From Alphaproteobacteria bacterium MarineAlpha5_Bin9 (GTDB lineage Bacteria; Pseudomonadota; Alphaproteobacteria; HIMB59; GCA-002718135): DNA of 64,000 bases. The DNA is taken from positions 4,057-68,056 of the forward strand of contig PTKV01000001.1 of assembly GCA_002937895.1 (NCBI GenBank). Direction: 5' to 3'. The notes beneath the pieces are model-generated. The model worked only from the letters and a program-made list of their open reading frames with translations. It was not told where the DNA came from and did not search any database. Below, piece by piece: positions 1-35,591 of the stretch (position 1 is the first letter of the stretch; the number at the start of each line of letters is the position of its first letter). Position numbers and translations under genes: made by a program.

Positions 1-319
1 CTTCTATTTTTTTGTATATATTATGTTTAATATCAATTCTTTCTACTACTGCTTCAACAACCCAATCAGCATCTTTAACTAAATTAAAATCATCATCAAT
101 ATTGCCAGCAAAAATCAAATTAATTTTATTTTTTTCAAATAACAAAGGTGGGCGTGATTTTAAAATTCTTTCCTTAGCTTTTTCACTAATTTCATTTTTA
201 TTTCCATTAATTGACGGGAGATCCAACAGATTTACTTGTAAGCCAGCGTTTGCAACTTGAGCAGCAATACCACTGCCCATAGTTCCTGAACCAATTATAA
301 CTACTTTTCTAATTTCCAC
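1..319 (-). CDS. 3-hydroxyacyl-CoA dehydrogenase family protein, N-terminal NAD-binding part (gene continues past the left edge)
   Basis: Not in the ORF track (GTG start at 319-317, no stop inside the window). My minus-strand translation is VEIRKVVIIGSGTMGSGIAAQVANAGLQVNLLD...DADWVVEAVVERIDIKHNIYKKIE. This shows a Rossmann GxGxxG plus the EAVxE...K segment typical of HADH/FadB N-domains. The 12..260 + ORF is its antisense shadow. Confidence 0.7.
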   Translation of the reverse strand, partial: MEIRKVVIIGSGTMGSGIAAQVANAGLQVNLLDLPSINGNKNEISEKAKERILKSRPPLLFEKNKINLIFAGNIDDDFNLVKDADWVVEAVVERIDIKHNIYKKIE

Positions 320-11911: not shown

Positions 11912-12267
11912 TTTCTTTAAATAATAAAAATTTATCTTTAAAAATAATAAAAATTTTAGAGGATAATAAAGCAGAAGAGATAGAAATCATAAATATAGCC
12001 GGCAGATCTTCTATTGCAGAAAAATTTATTATCGCCTCATGTAGATCTAGTCGTCACAATGCTGCTACAGCCAATCTTTTAACTCAAAAACTAAAAGATA
12101 TAGGTATAAAATGTCCGCCTCCTGAAGGCAAAATAGTTTCTGATTGGATAATAGTTGATACAGGGTCAATAATTGTCCATTTATTTAGGCCAGAAATCAG
12201 AGAAAAATATAAACTTGAAAAATTGTGGGATATTGGGTTTGATTTAATTGAAAACCAATCAGCTTAA
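11911..12267 (+). CDS. rsfS: ribosomal silencing factor RsfS (iojap-like); no canonical start codon
   Basis: Absent from the ORF track. The frame is open from 11881 to TAA 12265-67. My translation is ISLNNKNLSLKIIKILEDNKAEEIEIINIAGRSSIAEKFIIASCRSSRHNAATANLLTQKLKDIGIKCPPPEGKIVSDWIIVDTGSIIVHLFRPEIREKYKLEKLWD. This matches the RsfS pattern (D/EyfvI.sg.S.R...A, EG....W.l.D.g.vvvH.F....R..Y.LE.LW). It has the canonical post-nadD position. The first plausible initiator is ATT 11911, which overlaps the nadD TAA. Confidence 0.8.
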   Translation: MSLNNKNLSLKIIKILEDNKAEEIEIINIAGRSSIAEKFIIASCRSSRHNAATANLLTQKLKDIGIKCPPPEGKIVSDWIIVDTGSIIVHLFRPEIREKYKLEKLWDIGFDLIENQSA

Positions 12268-12282
12268 TAATATATTGAAAAA

Positions 12283-13557
12283 ATGAAAAAAATTTTATTT
12301 TTGCTCTTTACTATCGCAATAATTTTAAAATCAAATTTAGCAGTCAATGCCAAGGAAAAAGAAATAGACACTTATGAACTTCTTGACTTGTTTGGACAAA
12401 TTTTTGATAGAGTAAGAGAAACTTATGTTGAAGAAGTAACTGATCAAGAGTTGATAGAAAAAGCGATTGATGGCATGCTCACAGGGTTAGATCCTCATTC
12501 AGGGTATTTAGATGCAGAAACTTGGGAAGAAATGCAAGAGGAGACTAAAGGAAAGTTTGGAGGTTTGGGAATTGAAATTACAATGGAAGAAGGTTTTGTT
12601 AAAGTCGTTTCTCCTATAGAAGATACTCCAGCATATAATGCAGGAATTATAGCAGGGGATTTTATCGTTCAAATTGATGATGTGCCTGTTTTAGGAATGA
12701 CAATAAATGAAGCAGTAGAATTAATGAGAGGTAATATTGGAACATCAGTAAAATTAACTATTGCAAGAGAAGGTATAGATACTTTTGATGTTGATATTAC
12801 TAGAGCAATAATAAAAGTACAATCAGTAAAATCAGATGTGTTTAATAATGTAGGTTATATTAGAATTACCTCTTTTACAGAACAAACTTTTTCTGGTGTT
12901 AGGAGAGCTATTAATAAAATTGAAGATAAACTTGATAATAATGCTATAGGATATGTCTTAGATGTACGTTCAAATCCGGGCGGATTATTAAGTCAAGCAG
13001 TTAAAGTGACAGATGTTTTTTTAGAGAAAGGAGAAATTGTTTCTACTAGAGGAAGAGAAAAAAATGATATAACAAGATATAGAGCAAAAAAAGGAGATTT
13101 AATAAACAAAAAGCCTTTAGTAGTAATTATTAATGGAGGTTCAGCATCGGCTTCAGAAATTGTTGCAGGAGCTTTACAAGATCATAAAAGAGCAATAATT
13201 ATAGGCACTAAAACTTTTGGCAAAGGATCTGTCCAGACCATTATTCCTTTTAAAAATCCAGTTGAATCTGGAATTAGATTAACTACTGCTAGATATTATA
13301 CTCCCTCAGGCATTTCAATCCAAGGTAAGGGAATTGAACCAGATATAATTATTAAACAAGGAAAGTTTGAATCAAATAATTATAGAATATTATCTGAATC
13401 AGATTTAAAAAATTCTTTAGATAAAAATCAAGAACAGCTAGAAGACAGTGAAGAACTATCGCCCCAAGAAGAAAGGTTGTTAAATGATTTTCAATTAGCA
13501 AGAGCCATAAACCTTATTAAAGGATTAAGTATTTATGGAGAATCTTTGATTGAATAA
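12283..13557 (+). CDS. ctpA: carboxy-terminal processing protease (S41 family)
   Basis: 424 aa. Signal peptide, PDZ region (GGLGIEI...PAYNAGIIAGD), and S41 catalytic region LDVRSNPGG / GGSASASEIVAGALQD / TFGKGSVQ. Confidence 0.9.
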   Translation: MKKILFLLFTIAIILKSNLAVNAKEKEIDTYELLDLFGQIFDRVRETYVEEVTDQELIEKAIDGMLTGLDPHSGYLDAETWEEMQEETKGKFGGLGIEITMEEGFVKVVSPIEDTPAYNAGIIAGDFIVQIDDVPVLGMTINEAVELMRGNIGTSVKLTIAREGIDTFDVDITRAIIKVQSVKSDVFNNVGYIRITSFTEQTFSGVRRAINKIEDKLDNNAIGYVLDVRSNPGGLLSQAVKVTDVFLEKGEIVSTRGREKNDITRYRAKKGDLINKKPLVVIINGGSASASEIVAGALQDHKRAIIIGTKTFGKGSVQTIIPFKNPVESGIRLTTARYYTPSGISIQGKGIEPDIIIKQGKFESNNYRILSESDLKNSLDKNQEQLEDSEELSPQEERLLNDFQLARAINLIKGLSIYGESLIE

Positions 13558-33513: not shown

Positions 33514-33843
33514 CTAATAATTAAAATTGTTTATAAATATTAAAATAATTGTAAAAACTAAAAAATATAATGATTTAATTATAAATTTAATATTTTTTTC
33601 AATTTTAGTATCACCAAAATAATCATTAATTGCATGAAAAACTTCAATAGAAGTATGCAAAATTGAAAAAATAATTAAAAAAGAAAATAAAAATAAATTT
33701 TTAAAATTTTTAAAAAAAATATCAATTGTTTCATAATCATAATTATCTATCTTATAAGCTTCATTAGCAAGCCAAATAGATAATATAATGATCAGTGATG
33801 TAGAAATACGCTGATATACCCATTTTATTGTTTCAAAAGTCAT
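33514..33843 (-). CDS. sdhD: succinate dehydrogenase membrane anchor subunit
   Basis: 109 aa, three predicted TM helices. The call rests on position between sdhC and sdhA and a 4-bp overlap with sdhC. Confidence 0.8.
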
Positions 33844-34214
33844 AGCAAAAAGATAAAAACTAAAAAAGTTAAAATTAAAGAAATCAAAATAATTATATAG
33901 CTAGATATCTTTATAGAAATTAAACTTAAGCCTAAACCAAATGCCCAAAATATCTTACGAAATTCATCAATAAAATGAAAAATAAAACAAAATACTATAA
34001 CTATAAAAATTATTTTTCCAAAAATGTTATAAAAAATTAATTTAAAAAATTCATAATAGTTTGGACCTAAAACAAAAGAAGTCATCCACAAAGCAATAAA
34101 CAAAAGACCTATAGAAAAGCCTATACCAGTGGCTCTATGGCTAATTGACATTATTTGAGTCAAAATCCATTTATGGATAGTAATGTGTGGAGATAAAGGT
34201 CTTATATTGTTCAT
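33840..34214 (-). CDS. sdhC: succinate dehydrogenase cytochrome b556 subunit
   Basis: 124 aa. N-terminal RPLSPHITIHKW...SISHRATG is the conserved SdhC motif. First gene of sdhCDAB. Confidence 0.88.
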   Translation of the reverse strand: MNNIRPLSPHITIHKWILTQIMSISHRATGIGFSIGLLFIALWMTSFVLGPNYYEFFKLIFYNIFGKIIFIVIVFCFIFHFIDEFRKIFWAFGLGLSLISIKISSYIIILISLILTFLVFIFLL

Positions 34215-34426
34215 AAAAAATTATATTTTTTTTGTTTACATTTATTAATTAGTGATTTTACAGGGAATTTCAAAATTTTTCATGTCTTTTGATTGTTGTA
34301 TTTTTGACTATAAACTGTGGATAAATATGTGAATATTTTTTGAAAACTGAATAAATGTTAAAATTAAACCATAGTTTATAACTTGATACTACATAATTTA
34401 AGTTATTTTTTGAAATAATTAAACAA

Positions 34427-34455
34427 TTGAAATATTTATTATTTAGCATTAATTT
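34427..34455 (+). promoter_or_regulatory. sigma-70-like promoter candidate for the 34462-34614 element
   Basis: TTGAAA (34427-32), a 17-nt spacer, then TAATTT (34450-55). The predicted start at ~34462 coincides with the first nucleotide of the long closing helix. AT-rich background makes chance matches common. Confidence 0.3.
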
Positions 34456-34461
34456 AGCTAT

Positions 34462-34614
34462 TTGCTGAGTAGTTAAGCTCTTATTTTTATTCATTCTGGG
34501 AGGAACGCATAAAAATATTTTAATCACTTCCGCCGAGTGATTTAGGGTTTTCAAGGCTAGAGAAGTGTCTGCCAAGGTACAGGTTCTAGTTTATCTACTC
34601 AGCAATTTTATTTT
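34462..34614 (+). ncRNA. candidate structured RNA of unknown class (strand tentative)
   Basis: G+C-enriched island in a 393-bp spacer. 34462-34479 pairs with 34588-34605 (17 bp, one U-U mismatch). Internal helices are GGAAC 34502-06/GTTCT 34583-87, the hairpin 34522-28/34536-42 (AATCACT/AGTGATT) at the exact midpoint, and the hairpin 34555-61/34568-73. TTTTATTTT (34606-14) follows the 3' strand of the closing helix. Confidence 0.35.
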
Positions 34615-35591
34615 AAGTTCTTTTTAAAAAAATCTTTCATTTTCTTTCCATATAACTCAGGATTTTTTATCAACCCATCAATGTGTCCAGAATTTTTAAT
34701 TAACCAAAATTCAGCACTAATATTTTTACTTTCTGCATATTTTTTAAAATAATAAAAATGGTTTACATATACTCTTTCATCATCATCTCCATGAGTAAAA
34801 AAATAATTAGAATTTGCATTGAGATAATATACGGGATTTAAATTATTTGGATCTACACCTGAAAGTAATGAACCTACAATTTTTACTCCAAAACCAAAAA
34901 TATTAGGAAAACCATATCGTCCAATTTCTTCAGTTAAAATCATATTAAATTTAGCTAAAGAACTTTCTGACCAAATAGCTTTAATAGAATCTTCGTATTT
35001 TGATGCAATAATTACTGTGCTTGCACCAAGAGATAATCCTATTAAACCTATTTGATTTTGACTATATCCATTTTCTCTTAAATAATCATAGGCACCTAAA
35101 ACATCTCTGTATGAGGTCAATCCAAGATTCTCGTAATTACTAACTATATCACTTTCACCATAATTTCTTAAATCAATTGTTAAAACATTAATACTATTTT
35201 TAATTAACAAACTTGCTATCAAGTTTGATTCAAATTTACATTTTCCATTAGGAAAAATACCATGAACGACAATAACTACTGGCTGGTTAATATGATAATT
35301 AAATAGCCATCCACTTATATTAATATCCTCTCCTCGTGATTTAAAATTAACACTCTCCCATTTATCTAAATAATATTTAGATTCTTCAAAATTATTCCTA
35401 AGATTAATTCTTGATTCACTTTTCATATTGTGATCTGCTAAAACTTTCCAAGTGTTAGGTGAAAATCCAGAAGAATCACCACAAGTATGATTCATTTTTA
35501 ATATTGTATTAGCTAGATAAAAACTCAATCCAAAATATAAAAATATTAGTGAGAATATTACAAAAAAAATAAGTTTATAAAATTTTTTCAT
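34608..35591 (-). CDS. membrane-anchored alpha/beta-fold hydrolase
   Basis: 327 aa. N-terminal TM helix, nucleophile elbow GLSLGAS, and candidate acid/His residues (HGDDDERV, SGHIDG). Substrate unknown. Confidence 0.7.
   Translation of the reverse strand: MKKFYKLIFFVIFSLIFLYFGLSFYLANTILKMNHTCGDSSGFSPNTWKVLADHNMKSESRINLRNNFEESKYYLDKWESVNFKSRGEDINISGWLFNYHINQPVVIVVHGIFPNGKCKFESNLIASLLIKNSINVLTIDLRNYGESDIVSNYENLGLTSYRDVLGAYDYLRENGYSQNQIGLIGLSLGASTVIIASKYEDSIKAIWSESSLAKFNMILTEEIGRYGFPNIFGFGVKIVGSLLSGVDPNNLNPVYYLNANSNYFFTHGDDDERVYVNHFYYFKKYAESKNISAEFWLIKNSGHIDGLIKNPELYGKKMKDFFKKNLK

Follow-up and report, generated by a model that had tools for sequence, protein, structure and literature searches.

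6S RNA is a folded particle which is bound by a protein, the RNA polymerase. Small RNAs of the RyhB, PrrF, NrrF, and FsrA type are short and controlled by Fur, they pair with sdh mRNA by means of a linear seed, and all four of them repress sdh operons. In 'Candidatus Pelagibacter ubique' candidate non-coding RNA motifs have been described in long G+C-rich intergenic regions, including the three-stem SAR11_0635/0636 motif (Meyer et al. 2009, PMC2704228), and none of the eight Pelagibacter motifs adjoins sdh genes (PMC2704228).

Upstream of the sdhC gene in a stretch of DNA of 64 kb, the whole of which is called the window in the following, a G+C-rich island is located which, as judged by comparison with homologous sequences, very probably is a single-copy + strand gene for a structured non-coding RNA with a predicted transcript of about 150 nt. 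The gene is a new family of a known kind of element, the stand-alone structured bacterial small RNAs. It is regarded as new since no match was obtained in Rfam 15 and since neither an sdhC-associated RNA motif nor non-coding RNAs of HIMB59 are described in the literature that was searched. With 6S RNA (RF00013) it has in common that it is a stand-alone gene, about 150–190 nt in length, with a closing stem formed by the 5′ and 3′ ends and with one copy per genome. The fold is different, however, as the sdhC-linked RNA is a junction with three hairpins and has no Rfam match, whereas 6S RNA is a rod with a large central bubble. The RyhB, PrrF, NrrF, and FsrA RNAs resemble it in being transcribed independently and in their link to sdhCDAB, which is a functional one in their case and here consists in the predicted gene adjoining sdhC. 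In contrast to these RNAs no enrichment of Fur boxes accompanies the sdhC-linked RNA, and its fold is much more elaborate. The Pelagibacter motifs were found in a similar setting, as islands of high G+C within long spacers of A/T-rich, streamlined genomes of marine bacteria, and the SAR11_0635/0636 motif is like it predicted to be a multi-stem junction which is probably transcribed separately (PMC2704228). From the Pelagibacter motifs the sdhC-linked RNA differs in sequence and structure as well as in its genomic context and its host lineage (PMC2704228).

The Spacer Upstream of sdhC

The spacer which contains the island is situated between two genes on the minus strand, an alpha/beta-hydrolase / S9-peptidase-like gene (34608–35591), in the following called the hydrolase gene, and sdhC (33840–34214), after which sdhD and sdhA come. 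An earlier note on this DNA had described the spacer as by far the longest one. With 393 bp it is indeed the longest in the window, provided that a spurious open reading frame of 101 amino acids is set aside, but "by far" goes too far, as gaps of 371 bp and of 316 bp occur as well, the latter containing a tRNA. The median intergenic gap in the window amounts to 6.5 bp. The enrichment of G+C in the distal part of the spacer, which had also been remarked upon, is readily seen, the G+C content being 0.38 in positions 34462–34605, as compared to 0.17 for the remaining spacer and 0.27 for the window as a whole. The sequence features listed in that note were all found again at the coordinates it gives.

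The reading frame of 101 amino acids on the minus strand was considered as a gene and rejected, as it is not conserved. Of the 107 homologous copies introduced below only 14–15 are open throughout in any frame of either strand, and with at most about 14% of the copies open in any frame it can be taken as an accident of the window copy. A search of positions 33800–35000 with ARAGORN yielded neither a tRNA nor a tmRNA. A dispersed repeat was discarded as an explanation on account of the single copy per locus.

Folding of a 160-nt stretch of the window copy as a single sequence gave −42.4 kcal/mol with a z-score of −3.0 on the + strand and −41.6 kcal/mol with a z-score of −5.8 on the minus strand, and on either strand the native sequence beat all 200 shuffles. 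As the window copy folds well on both strands, a single sequence is sufficient to demonstrate structure and leaves the strand unidentified. In a simple scan of the window sequence for promoters and terminators the promoter proposed by the earlier note was not called, nor was any terminator, and promoter-like matches in the window copy occurred at chance level (4 found versus 3.6 expected). With promoter-like matches at chance and folding on both strands, the question had to be decided by comparison of homologues.

Occurrence in Related Loci

Homologous copies, more than 120 in number and at least 107 of them distinct, were found in marine metagenomes, MAGs, and SAGs. In the spacers of the four loci L007, L015, L017, and L018 the core strings are identical, and the closing helix is different in sequence yet complementary. 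Variants of this helix are UUGCUGAGUAG/CUACUCAGCAA, GCCGGAUAAAA/UUUUAUCCGGC, and GUCGGA/UCCGAC. A metagenome scan with two core strings, by which 22 nt in the helices P3 and P5 of the fold described below are fixed, gave at least 119 loci; these and the loci found earlier make up the 107 distinct copies.

As the search pattern fixes 22 nt, loci were sampled additionally through proteins alone. Three of them (L138, L139, L140) were reached via the hydrolase protein and one (L142) via SdhC, and no RNA pattern was used. All four carry the RNA, with 89–165 bits in the covariance model, and some substitutions within the strings fixed by the pattern, such as GGGAAG and GCCAUGG, are seen in the loci found by protein. 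The RNA is present in all related hydrolase-sdhC loci examined, i.e., L007, L015, L017, L018, L138, L139, L140, and L142. The covariance model does not find it in L016, where a homologue of the hydrolase gene has other surroundings, nor in L001–L006, six distant loci with sdhC from other Proteobacteria. Selection by the pattern partly explains the invariance observed in P3 and P5, and the copies free of this bias are those in seven neighbour-gene loci, the one in L007, and the window copy.

The covariance model of the family matches the window at 34457–34619 on the + strand with 94.5 bits (E = 2e-19), which is the only match within the 64 kb, and exactly one match was obtained in each of 100 loci comprising 620 kb. 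The position of the RNA is well maintained. In the window the RNA gene and sdhC point away from each other, and the RNA gene and the hydrolase gene point towards each other. Divergence from sdhC is found in every locus which reaches sdhC, with the 5′ end of the RNA 175–250 nt from the ATG of sdhC, and the hydrolase gene converges on the 3′ end of the RNA in most loci. In two loci (L125, L126) the hydrolase gene is missing and a UDG gene abuts the RNA, and the linkage to sdhC is kept. All this is found across loci in which the SdhC protein is only 34–76% identical to that of the window.

The earlier note had supposed that the RNA stands outside the known families, and the search of Rfam 15 agrees with this. 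The window copy had no match at the gathering thresholds and two chance-level matches at E ≤ 10, and 11 other, diverse members had no match at E ≤ 5. A likeness to 5S rRNA in the string AGAAGUG was dropped as well, this being a short match without structural or Rfam support.

Secondary Structure

Compensatory changes in orthologous spacers had been named by the earlier note as a check on its candidate RNA, and such changes are found. A covariance model was built from the alignment and 100 aligned copies were counted, in which 95.8% of the cells are paired and 24 of the 42 pairs have changes on both sides. For covariation a score of 0.248 was obtained as compared to 0.133 in shuffles, and none of 500 shuffles reaches the observed values, although these shuffle statistics are inflated both by the fitting of the counted alignment to the model and by the relatedness of the sequences. 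The more robust evidence for the fold is provided by slid controls, with covariation scores of 0.02–0.05 and pairing of 30–46%, and by the large number of different pair types which occur in P1, P2, and P4.

According to the predicted architecture a helix P1 clamps the ends, and inside it a helix P2 encloses the hairpins P3 and P4 and is followed by the hairpin P5. The three hairpins have near-invariant tips, which are GGAG, CCGCC, and GUGUCU-GCCA-AGGUAC, the last one containing a tandem G·U that is fixed. All helices are given here for the + strand. In P1 the 5′ arm UUGCUGAGUAG (34462–34472) pairs with the 3′ arm CUACUCAGCAA (34595–34605). Ten of its 11 pairs are changed on both sides, for example in GCCGGA/UCCGGC, GUCGGA/UCCGAC, and GCUGAG/CUCAGC. 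The first 11 nt of the RNA would in this way pair with the last 11 nt ahead of the U-run and clamp both ends. A longer closing helix, of 34462–34479 with 34588–34605, had been proposed initially. It can indeed be formed in the window copy, with 17 pairs including one G·U and with one U·U mismatch, but conservation is limited to the outer 11 bp. The inner 6 bp form in a minority of copies and compete with P2 of the family.

The 5′ strand of P2 (about 34478–34483), for which the family consensus is ACUC and which is weak in the window copy, pairs with AGGG at 34544–34547, where the consensus is GAGU. All four pairs of P2 are changed on both sides, and the register in the window copy is uncertain by 2 nt. 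The P3 hairpin (34485–34514) has the tip UUC-UGGGAG-GAA in the window copy and UUC-GGAG-GAA in most copies. In P3 98.6% of the cells are paired and three of the 10 pairs are changed on both sides. Its string GGAGGAACG is invariant; it is part of the search pattern, yet it is invariant also in the seven neighbour-gene loci. The P4 hairpin (34522–34542) is identical with the hairpin AATCACT-TCCGCCG-AGTGATT already recognised in the window sequence by the earlier note, and its stem covaries, with changes on both sides in all five pairs of the main stem and in one of the two pairs of the inner part. The invariant CCGCC loop of P4 (34530–34534), conserved to at least 97%, lies outside the search pattern.

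The P5 hairpin (34557–34589) is made up of CUAG / AGAA / GUGUCU-GCCA-AGGUAC / NNN / CUAG with the GCCA loop at 34571–34574. In it 99–100% of the cells are paired, with support almost only from one-sided, compatible changes. Of the four outer pairs CUAG/CUAG one is changed on both sides, and of the six inner pairs GUGUCU/AGGUAC none is, three varying on one side and three never. Having scarcely any two-sided changes, P5 is the least certain helix. The tandem G·U/U·G in it is retained in 98–100% of the copies, although replacement by Watson-Crick pairs would be possible.

Two further inner helices, which had been suggested from the window sequence, were not supported by the comparison. For GGAAC/GTTCT no comparative evidence was obtained, and of GGCTAGA/TCTGCC the two outer G-C pairs are found in only 3–7% of the copies, the invariant inner pairs being uninformative. 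Taken together, and with the inner 6 bp of the longer closing helix included, these inner helices show covariation no better than shuffles. In the family-consensus fold their bases are given to the hairpins P3 and P5, the latter displacing GGCTAGA/TCTGCC. An extra hairpin between P1 and P2 is present in some lineages. An all-against-all scan of the columns for additional tertiary or pseudoknot pairs gave only G·U noise arising from relatedness.

Probable Promoter and Terminator

Ahead of P1 a −35 hexamer TTGAAA (34427–34432, + strand) is followed after 17 nt by a −10 hexamer TAATTT (34450–34455, + strand). In a single A/T-rich sequence such matches occur at chance level, and the promoter becomes credible only by its conservation in the homologues, where TTGAAW stands at the equivalent place and TAnnnT is conserved. 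A strict test for TTGNNN-16..18-TANNNT at a fixed distance from P1 was passed by 80 of the 107 copies as compared to 2.5% of shuffles, and at offset positions by 1%. In nearly all copies which failed, the motif is displaced by a few nucleotides. Of the 80 strict matches 79 have a promoter spacer of 17 nt, and the −10 hexamer ends 6–8 nt ahead of the first G of the P1 core, which is G[C/U]CGGA in most copies. The positions of the hexamers are conserved to 85–95%, and those of the spacer between them are near random. The promoter read by the earlier note at 34427–34455 is thus conserved in position and in its hexamers across the homologues, with a spacer that is free to vary. As a sigma-70-type promoter it would set the start of transcription at about 34462.

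On the + strand P1 is followed by the terminator-like U-run UUUUAUUUU (34606–34614), which shares positions with the stop codon of the hydrolase gene on the minus strand, just as had been stated for TTTTATTTT at this position. At least five U within the first 8 nt past the 3′ arm of P1 are found in 93 of the 107 copies, and the gene-sense strand after P1 is mostly A-rich. P1 probably doubles as the stem of an intrinsic terminator. That this terminator was missed by the simple scan can be attributed to its stem being a long-range helix. From the promoter and the U-run a transcript of about 150 nt is predicted, which extends from 34462 to 34614 on the + strand, with a 5′ end accurate to ±2 nt and a 3′ end within the U-run.

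A terminator stem which encloses 120 nt of structure is unusual.

Proposed Mode of Action

The best overall explanation combines an independent + strand small RNA gene with a product which works as a partner-bound particle recognised by its shape; as a whole it is given about an even chance of being correct. The part of it which concerns the action, that the RNA is a stable folded particle which works in trans and is recognised by shape, most likely by a protein, is put forward tentatively and stands somewhat short of even. Several features of the family speak for shape recognition. The constraint rests on the hairpin tips and on non-Watson-Crick features, i.e., GGAG, CCGCC, and the tandem G·U by GCCA, and the joining regions vary. 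The optional extra hairpin between P1 and P2 is tolerated, as in other structured RNAs. Moreover no conserved single-stranded seed exceeds the CCGCC loop of 5 nt in length, and pairing of a linear seed with mRNAs is probably not used by the RNA. Sequences complementary to the P4 loop or to P5 occur nowhere else in the 64 kb searched.

The RNA might instead be a trans-acting small RNA which works by base pairing, with the CCGCC loop or the GGAG tip as a seed and possibly with Hfq on the U-tail. This is a rather unlikely explanation, yet it is the main rival. A promoter of its own together with a stem followed by a U-run is the usual layout of small RNAs, an invariant apical loop is present, and a C-rich loop and a U-tail are typical of base-pairing small RNAs. 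The strict linkage to sdhC would moreover be well suited to a RyhB-like regulator of sdhCDAB which is encoded beside its target, the specific version of this explanation. Conserved single-stranded stretches do not exceed 5–7 nt, however, and the constraint reaches into the stems and the wobble pairs. When each RNA was paired with its own sdhC leader, in a crude duplex model covering only positions −60 to +24, the mean z-score against shuffled leaders was −0.17, and the pairing sites predicted by this model were inconsistent between loci. CGGCGG is found nowhere else in the 64 kb of the window. A Fur box is not enriched in the control region either, where the best matches agree with the box at 11.9 of 19 positions on average, just as they do in shuffles.

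Far less probable, and in fact hardly to be expected, is a diverged housekeeping RNA, such as 6S or SRP RNA, which the Rfam models would have missed in an A/T-rich lineage. A length of about 150 nt, paired 5′ and 3′ ends, a strong-looking promoter, and one copy per genome are what such an RNA would have. As a further lead the 3′ strand of P3, GGAGGAACGCCAAG, is locally like the 3′ strand of helix 8 of E. coli 4.5S RNA, and the P3 strand and part of P5 have short strings (GCCAAGG, GGA-GGAA) in common with helix 8 of SRP (4.5S) RNA. The resemblance to helix 8 was dropped, as the matches are short and come without structural or Rfam support. P3 is a regular helix without symmetric or asymmetric loops and without a GNRA tetraloop, and the overall shape of the RNA is branched. 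Even at E ≤ 5–10 no Rfam match was obtained for the window copy and the 11 diverse members, and covariation supports a junction with several branches, neither the rod with a central bubble of 6S RNA nor the single long hairpin of SRP RNA.

Strand and Control Region

The promoter, the U-run, and the wobble pairs are three independent lines which point to the + strand of the window, opposite to the flanking genes, as the coding strand of the RNA. A G·U pair read from the opposite strand becomes an A·C mismatch. In the consensus helices 462 G·U cells were counted versus 43 A·C cells, a ratio of about 10 to 1, and canonical pairing reaches 95.8% on the + strand versus 85.6% on the other one. RNAalifold gave −58.4 kcal/mol on the + strand versus −45.0 on the other with the same MAFFT alignment. 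Sequence comparison thereby supports a gene which reads away from sdhC and towards the hydrolase gene. The earlier note had left a choice between an independent small RNA gene on the + strand and a far-upstream leader of the TCA operon on the minus strand, and the conserved promoter, the U-run, the excess of G·U, the covariation, and the lack of an Rfam match speak for the former.

A cis element on the minus strand, whether as a structured sdhCDAB leader or as an element between the cistrons of a transcript running from the hydrolase gene into sdhC, is very improbable. The element is always upstream of sdhC, the simple scan found no evident minus-strand terminator between the hydrolase gene and sdhC, and the window copy by itself folds with the better z-score on the minus strand, −5.8 as quoted above. 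On that strand, however, the 462 G·U cells turn into A·C mismatches, the consensus folding energy is worse, and the conserved promoter and the U-run are on the opposite one. In addition sdhC has a conserved promoter-like motif of its own, a T-run followed by TTGAAW, which is nearer and sits between the element and the gene, and which is likely to be the sdhC promoter. A riboswitch or 5′ leader would lie on the same strand as sdhCDAB, and the strand of the RNA was found to be opposite to that of sdhC.

The promoter of the small RNA and that of sdhCDAB have a common control region of about 250 bp. Between the two promoters a pair of DnaA-box-like 9-mers, ATATTCACA and TTATCCACA, is located at 34316–34336 on the minus strand. 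A tandem pair of TT[AT]TNCACA, a relaxed consensus of the DnaA box, is present in 74 of 104 loci, in constant orientation and about 96 nt from the 5′ end of the RNA, whereas none of the shuffles contains one. A perfect TTATCCACA, the second 9-mer of the pair, occurs once in the 64 kb. Matches resembling the ICE of Irr were found in the control region of 26 of 104 loci versus 16% of shuffles, which is marginal. The DnaA-box-like pair may be part of the regulation of the small RNA, and the common control region with its DnaA-box-like sites makes it conceivable, as a speculation, that the RNA is co-regulated with the TCA and respiratory operon.

Least probable of all is a role of the element as DNA or as a mere terminator, i.e., as a bidirectional terminator of the hydrolase gene, a repeat-like palindrome, or a DnaA site for an origin or for DnaA titration; the long inverted repeat at a gene end and the DnaA-box-like sites about 100 bp away would fit, but a terminator needs neither three internal hairpins with invariant tips nor compensatory changes throughout, the asymmetry of G·U versus A·C indicates selection on the RNA of one strand, the element is single-copy and not dispersed, and neither GC skew nor gene orientation switches at the locus. 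A replication origin was considered separately and rejected for the lack of such a switch, and nothing beyond the DnaA-box-like sites suggests one.

Significance and Host Lineage

In streamlined marine bacteria regulators are very few and hardly any DNA is to spare. If such genomes keep a non-coding gene of 150 nt across a lineage so deep that SdhC is only 34–76% identical, the gene is likely to be important. HIMB59-type bacteria are widespread in the ocean, and a single metagenome scan yielded at least 119 loci with the RNA. As a small RNA family it is well supported, the marine lineage to which it belongs is abundant, and its fold is elaborate; in kind it is unsurprising. Its fixed place beside sdhCDAB and the DnaA-box-like pair suggest that central metabolism and the cell cycle are linked with control by RNA in this organism, whose regulatory repertoire is minimal.

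A bolder proposal, possible but rather doubtful, is that the RNA forms the core of a new ribonucleoprotein, or is a ligand-sensing RNA, which is found throughout a lineage of the HIMB59 / AEGEAN-169 type and whose expression is tied to the TCA/respiratory operon via the control region with the DnaA boxes. The single copy, the strong promoter, the clamped ends, and the invariant recognition loops would be those of a housekeeping-grade RNA. If true, this would be a new functional class and more than another base-pairing small RNA.

As far as can be told from the genomes and metagenomes compared, the RNA family is found in marine Alphaproteobacteria of the HIMB59 type. In viral contigs the 17-mer GGCAGACACTTCTCTAG gave seven matches, which all lie in unrelated phage coding sequence. 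The reference to SAR11 in the earlier note is only approximately right, as the window comes from an alphaproteobacterium of the MarineAlpha5 / HIMB59 type, which is not SAR11 in the strict sense; MarineAlpha5 is described as a relative of HIMB59 which stands apart from Pelagibacterales (PMC8879329). The hydrolase protein is 100% identical to one of the MAG 'Alphaproteobacteria bacterium MarineAlpha5_Bin9', the nearest locus in a genome is that of MarineAlpha5_Bin7, and one single-cell genome which bears the RNA is labelled 'Pelagibacterales bacterium SAG-MED31' by NCBI.

Linkage and Structural Variants of the RNA

The predicted structured RNA of about 150 nt (window 34462-34614, + strand), which lies between the divergent sdhC gene and the convergent hydrolase gene, is also found in two loci lacking the hydrolase gene, L125 (4295-4458) and L126 (1523-1679). 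There the linkage of the RNA to sdhC is kept despite the missing hydrolase gene, and only 2-30 nt separate the 3' end of the RNA from the end of a uracil-DNA-glycosylase-like gene. A hydrolase homologue with 56% identity in a metagenome-assembled genome labelled Nitrospinota (L016, GCA_036012965.1) resides in another neighbourhood, with proS and fumarase, which contains neither sdhC nor the RNA. The RNA thus follows sdhC and the lineage rather than the hydrolase.

In some lineages an additional hairpin of approximately 25-40 nt is inserted between the closing helix P1 and the short inner helix P2 (L028, L041, L054, L058, L068, L114, L118, L120, L138, and L139). In several of these loci the tip of P3, one of the hairpins inside P2, is slightly altered and reads UUCUGGGAGGAAC, the same as in the window copy.

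Control Region between the RNA and sdhC

A T-run followed by TTGAAW is located on the minus strand at window position ~34262-34280 and also occurs in related loci. Of 102 spacers, 78 carry this motif (TTTTTTTGAA), which precedes the start codon of sdhC by 50-70 nt. It probably represents the promoter of sdhC, in which case sdhC would be independent of read-through from the hydrolase gene. Between this putative promoter and that of the RNA, with a constant spacing of about 96 nt to the 5' end of the RNA, two tandem DnaA-box-like 9-mers matching TT[AT]TNCACA, for example CTATCCACAGACTTATGCACA, are found on the minus strand (window 34316-34336). An equivalent pair with this consensus occurs in 74 of 104 related loci and never in shuffled controls; TTATCCACA is found a single time across the 64-kb window. 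As neither GC-skew nor gene orientation gives a sign of an origin at these sites, one possibility is that the promoters of sdhCDAB and of the RNA are controlled by DnaA in the role of a transcription factor.

Other Noncoding Candidates in the Window

An Rfam match to Rp_sR47 (Rickettsia sRNA47) at 13122-13244 (- strand) scores 66 bits, above the gathering score, and spans model positions 33-158 of 316. Because it falls within a long + strand reading frame (~12271-13557), it may represent conserved coding sequence instead of a small RNA. The second-longest apparent noncoding gap (11912-12282, 371 bp, 28% G+C), which contains no Rfam match and is flanked by + strand reading frames, may be a mere effect of start-codon choice.
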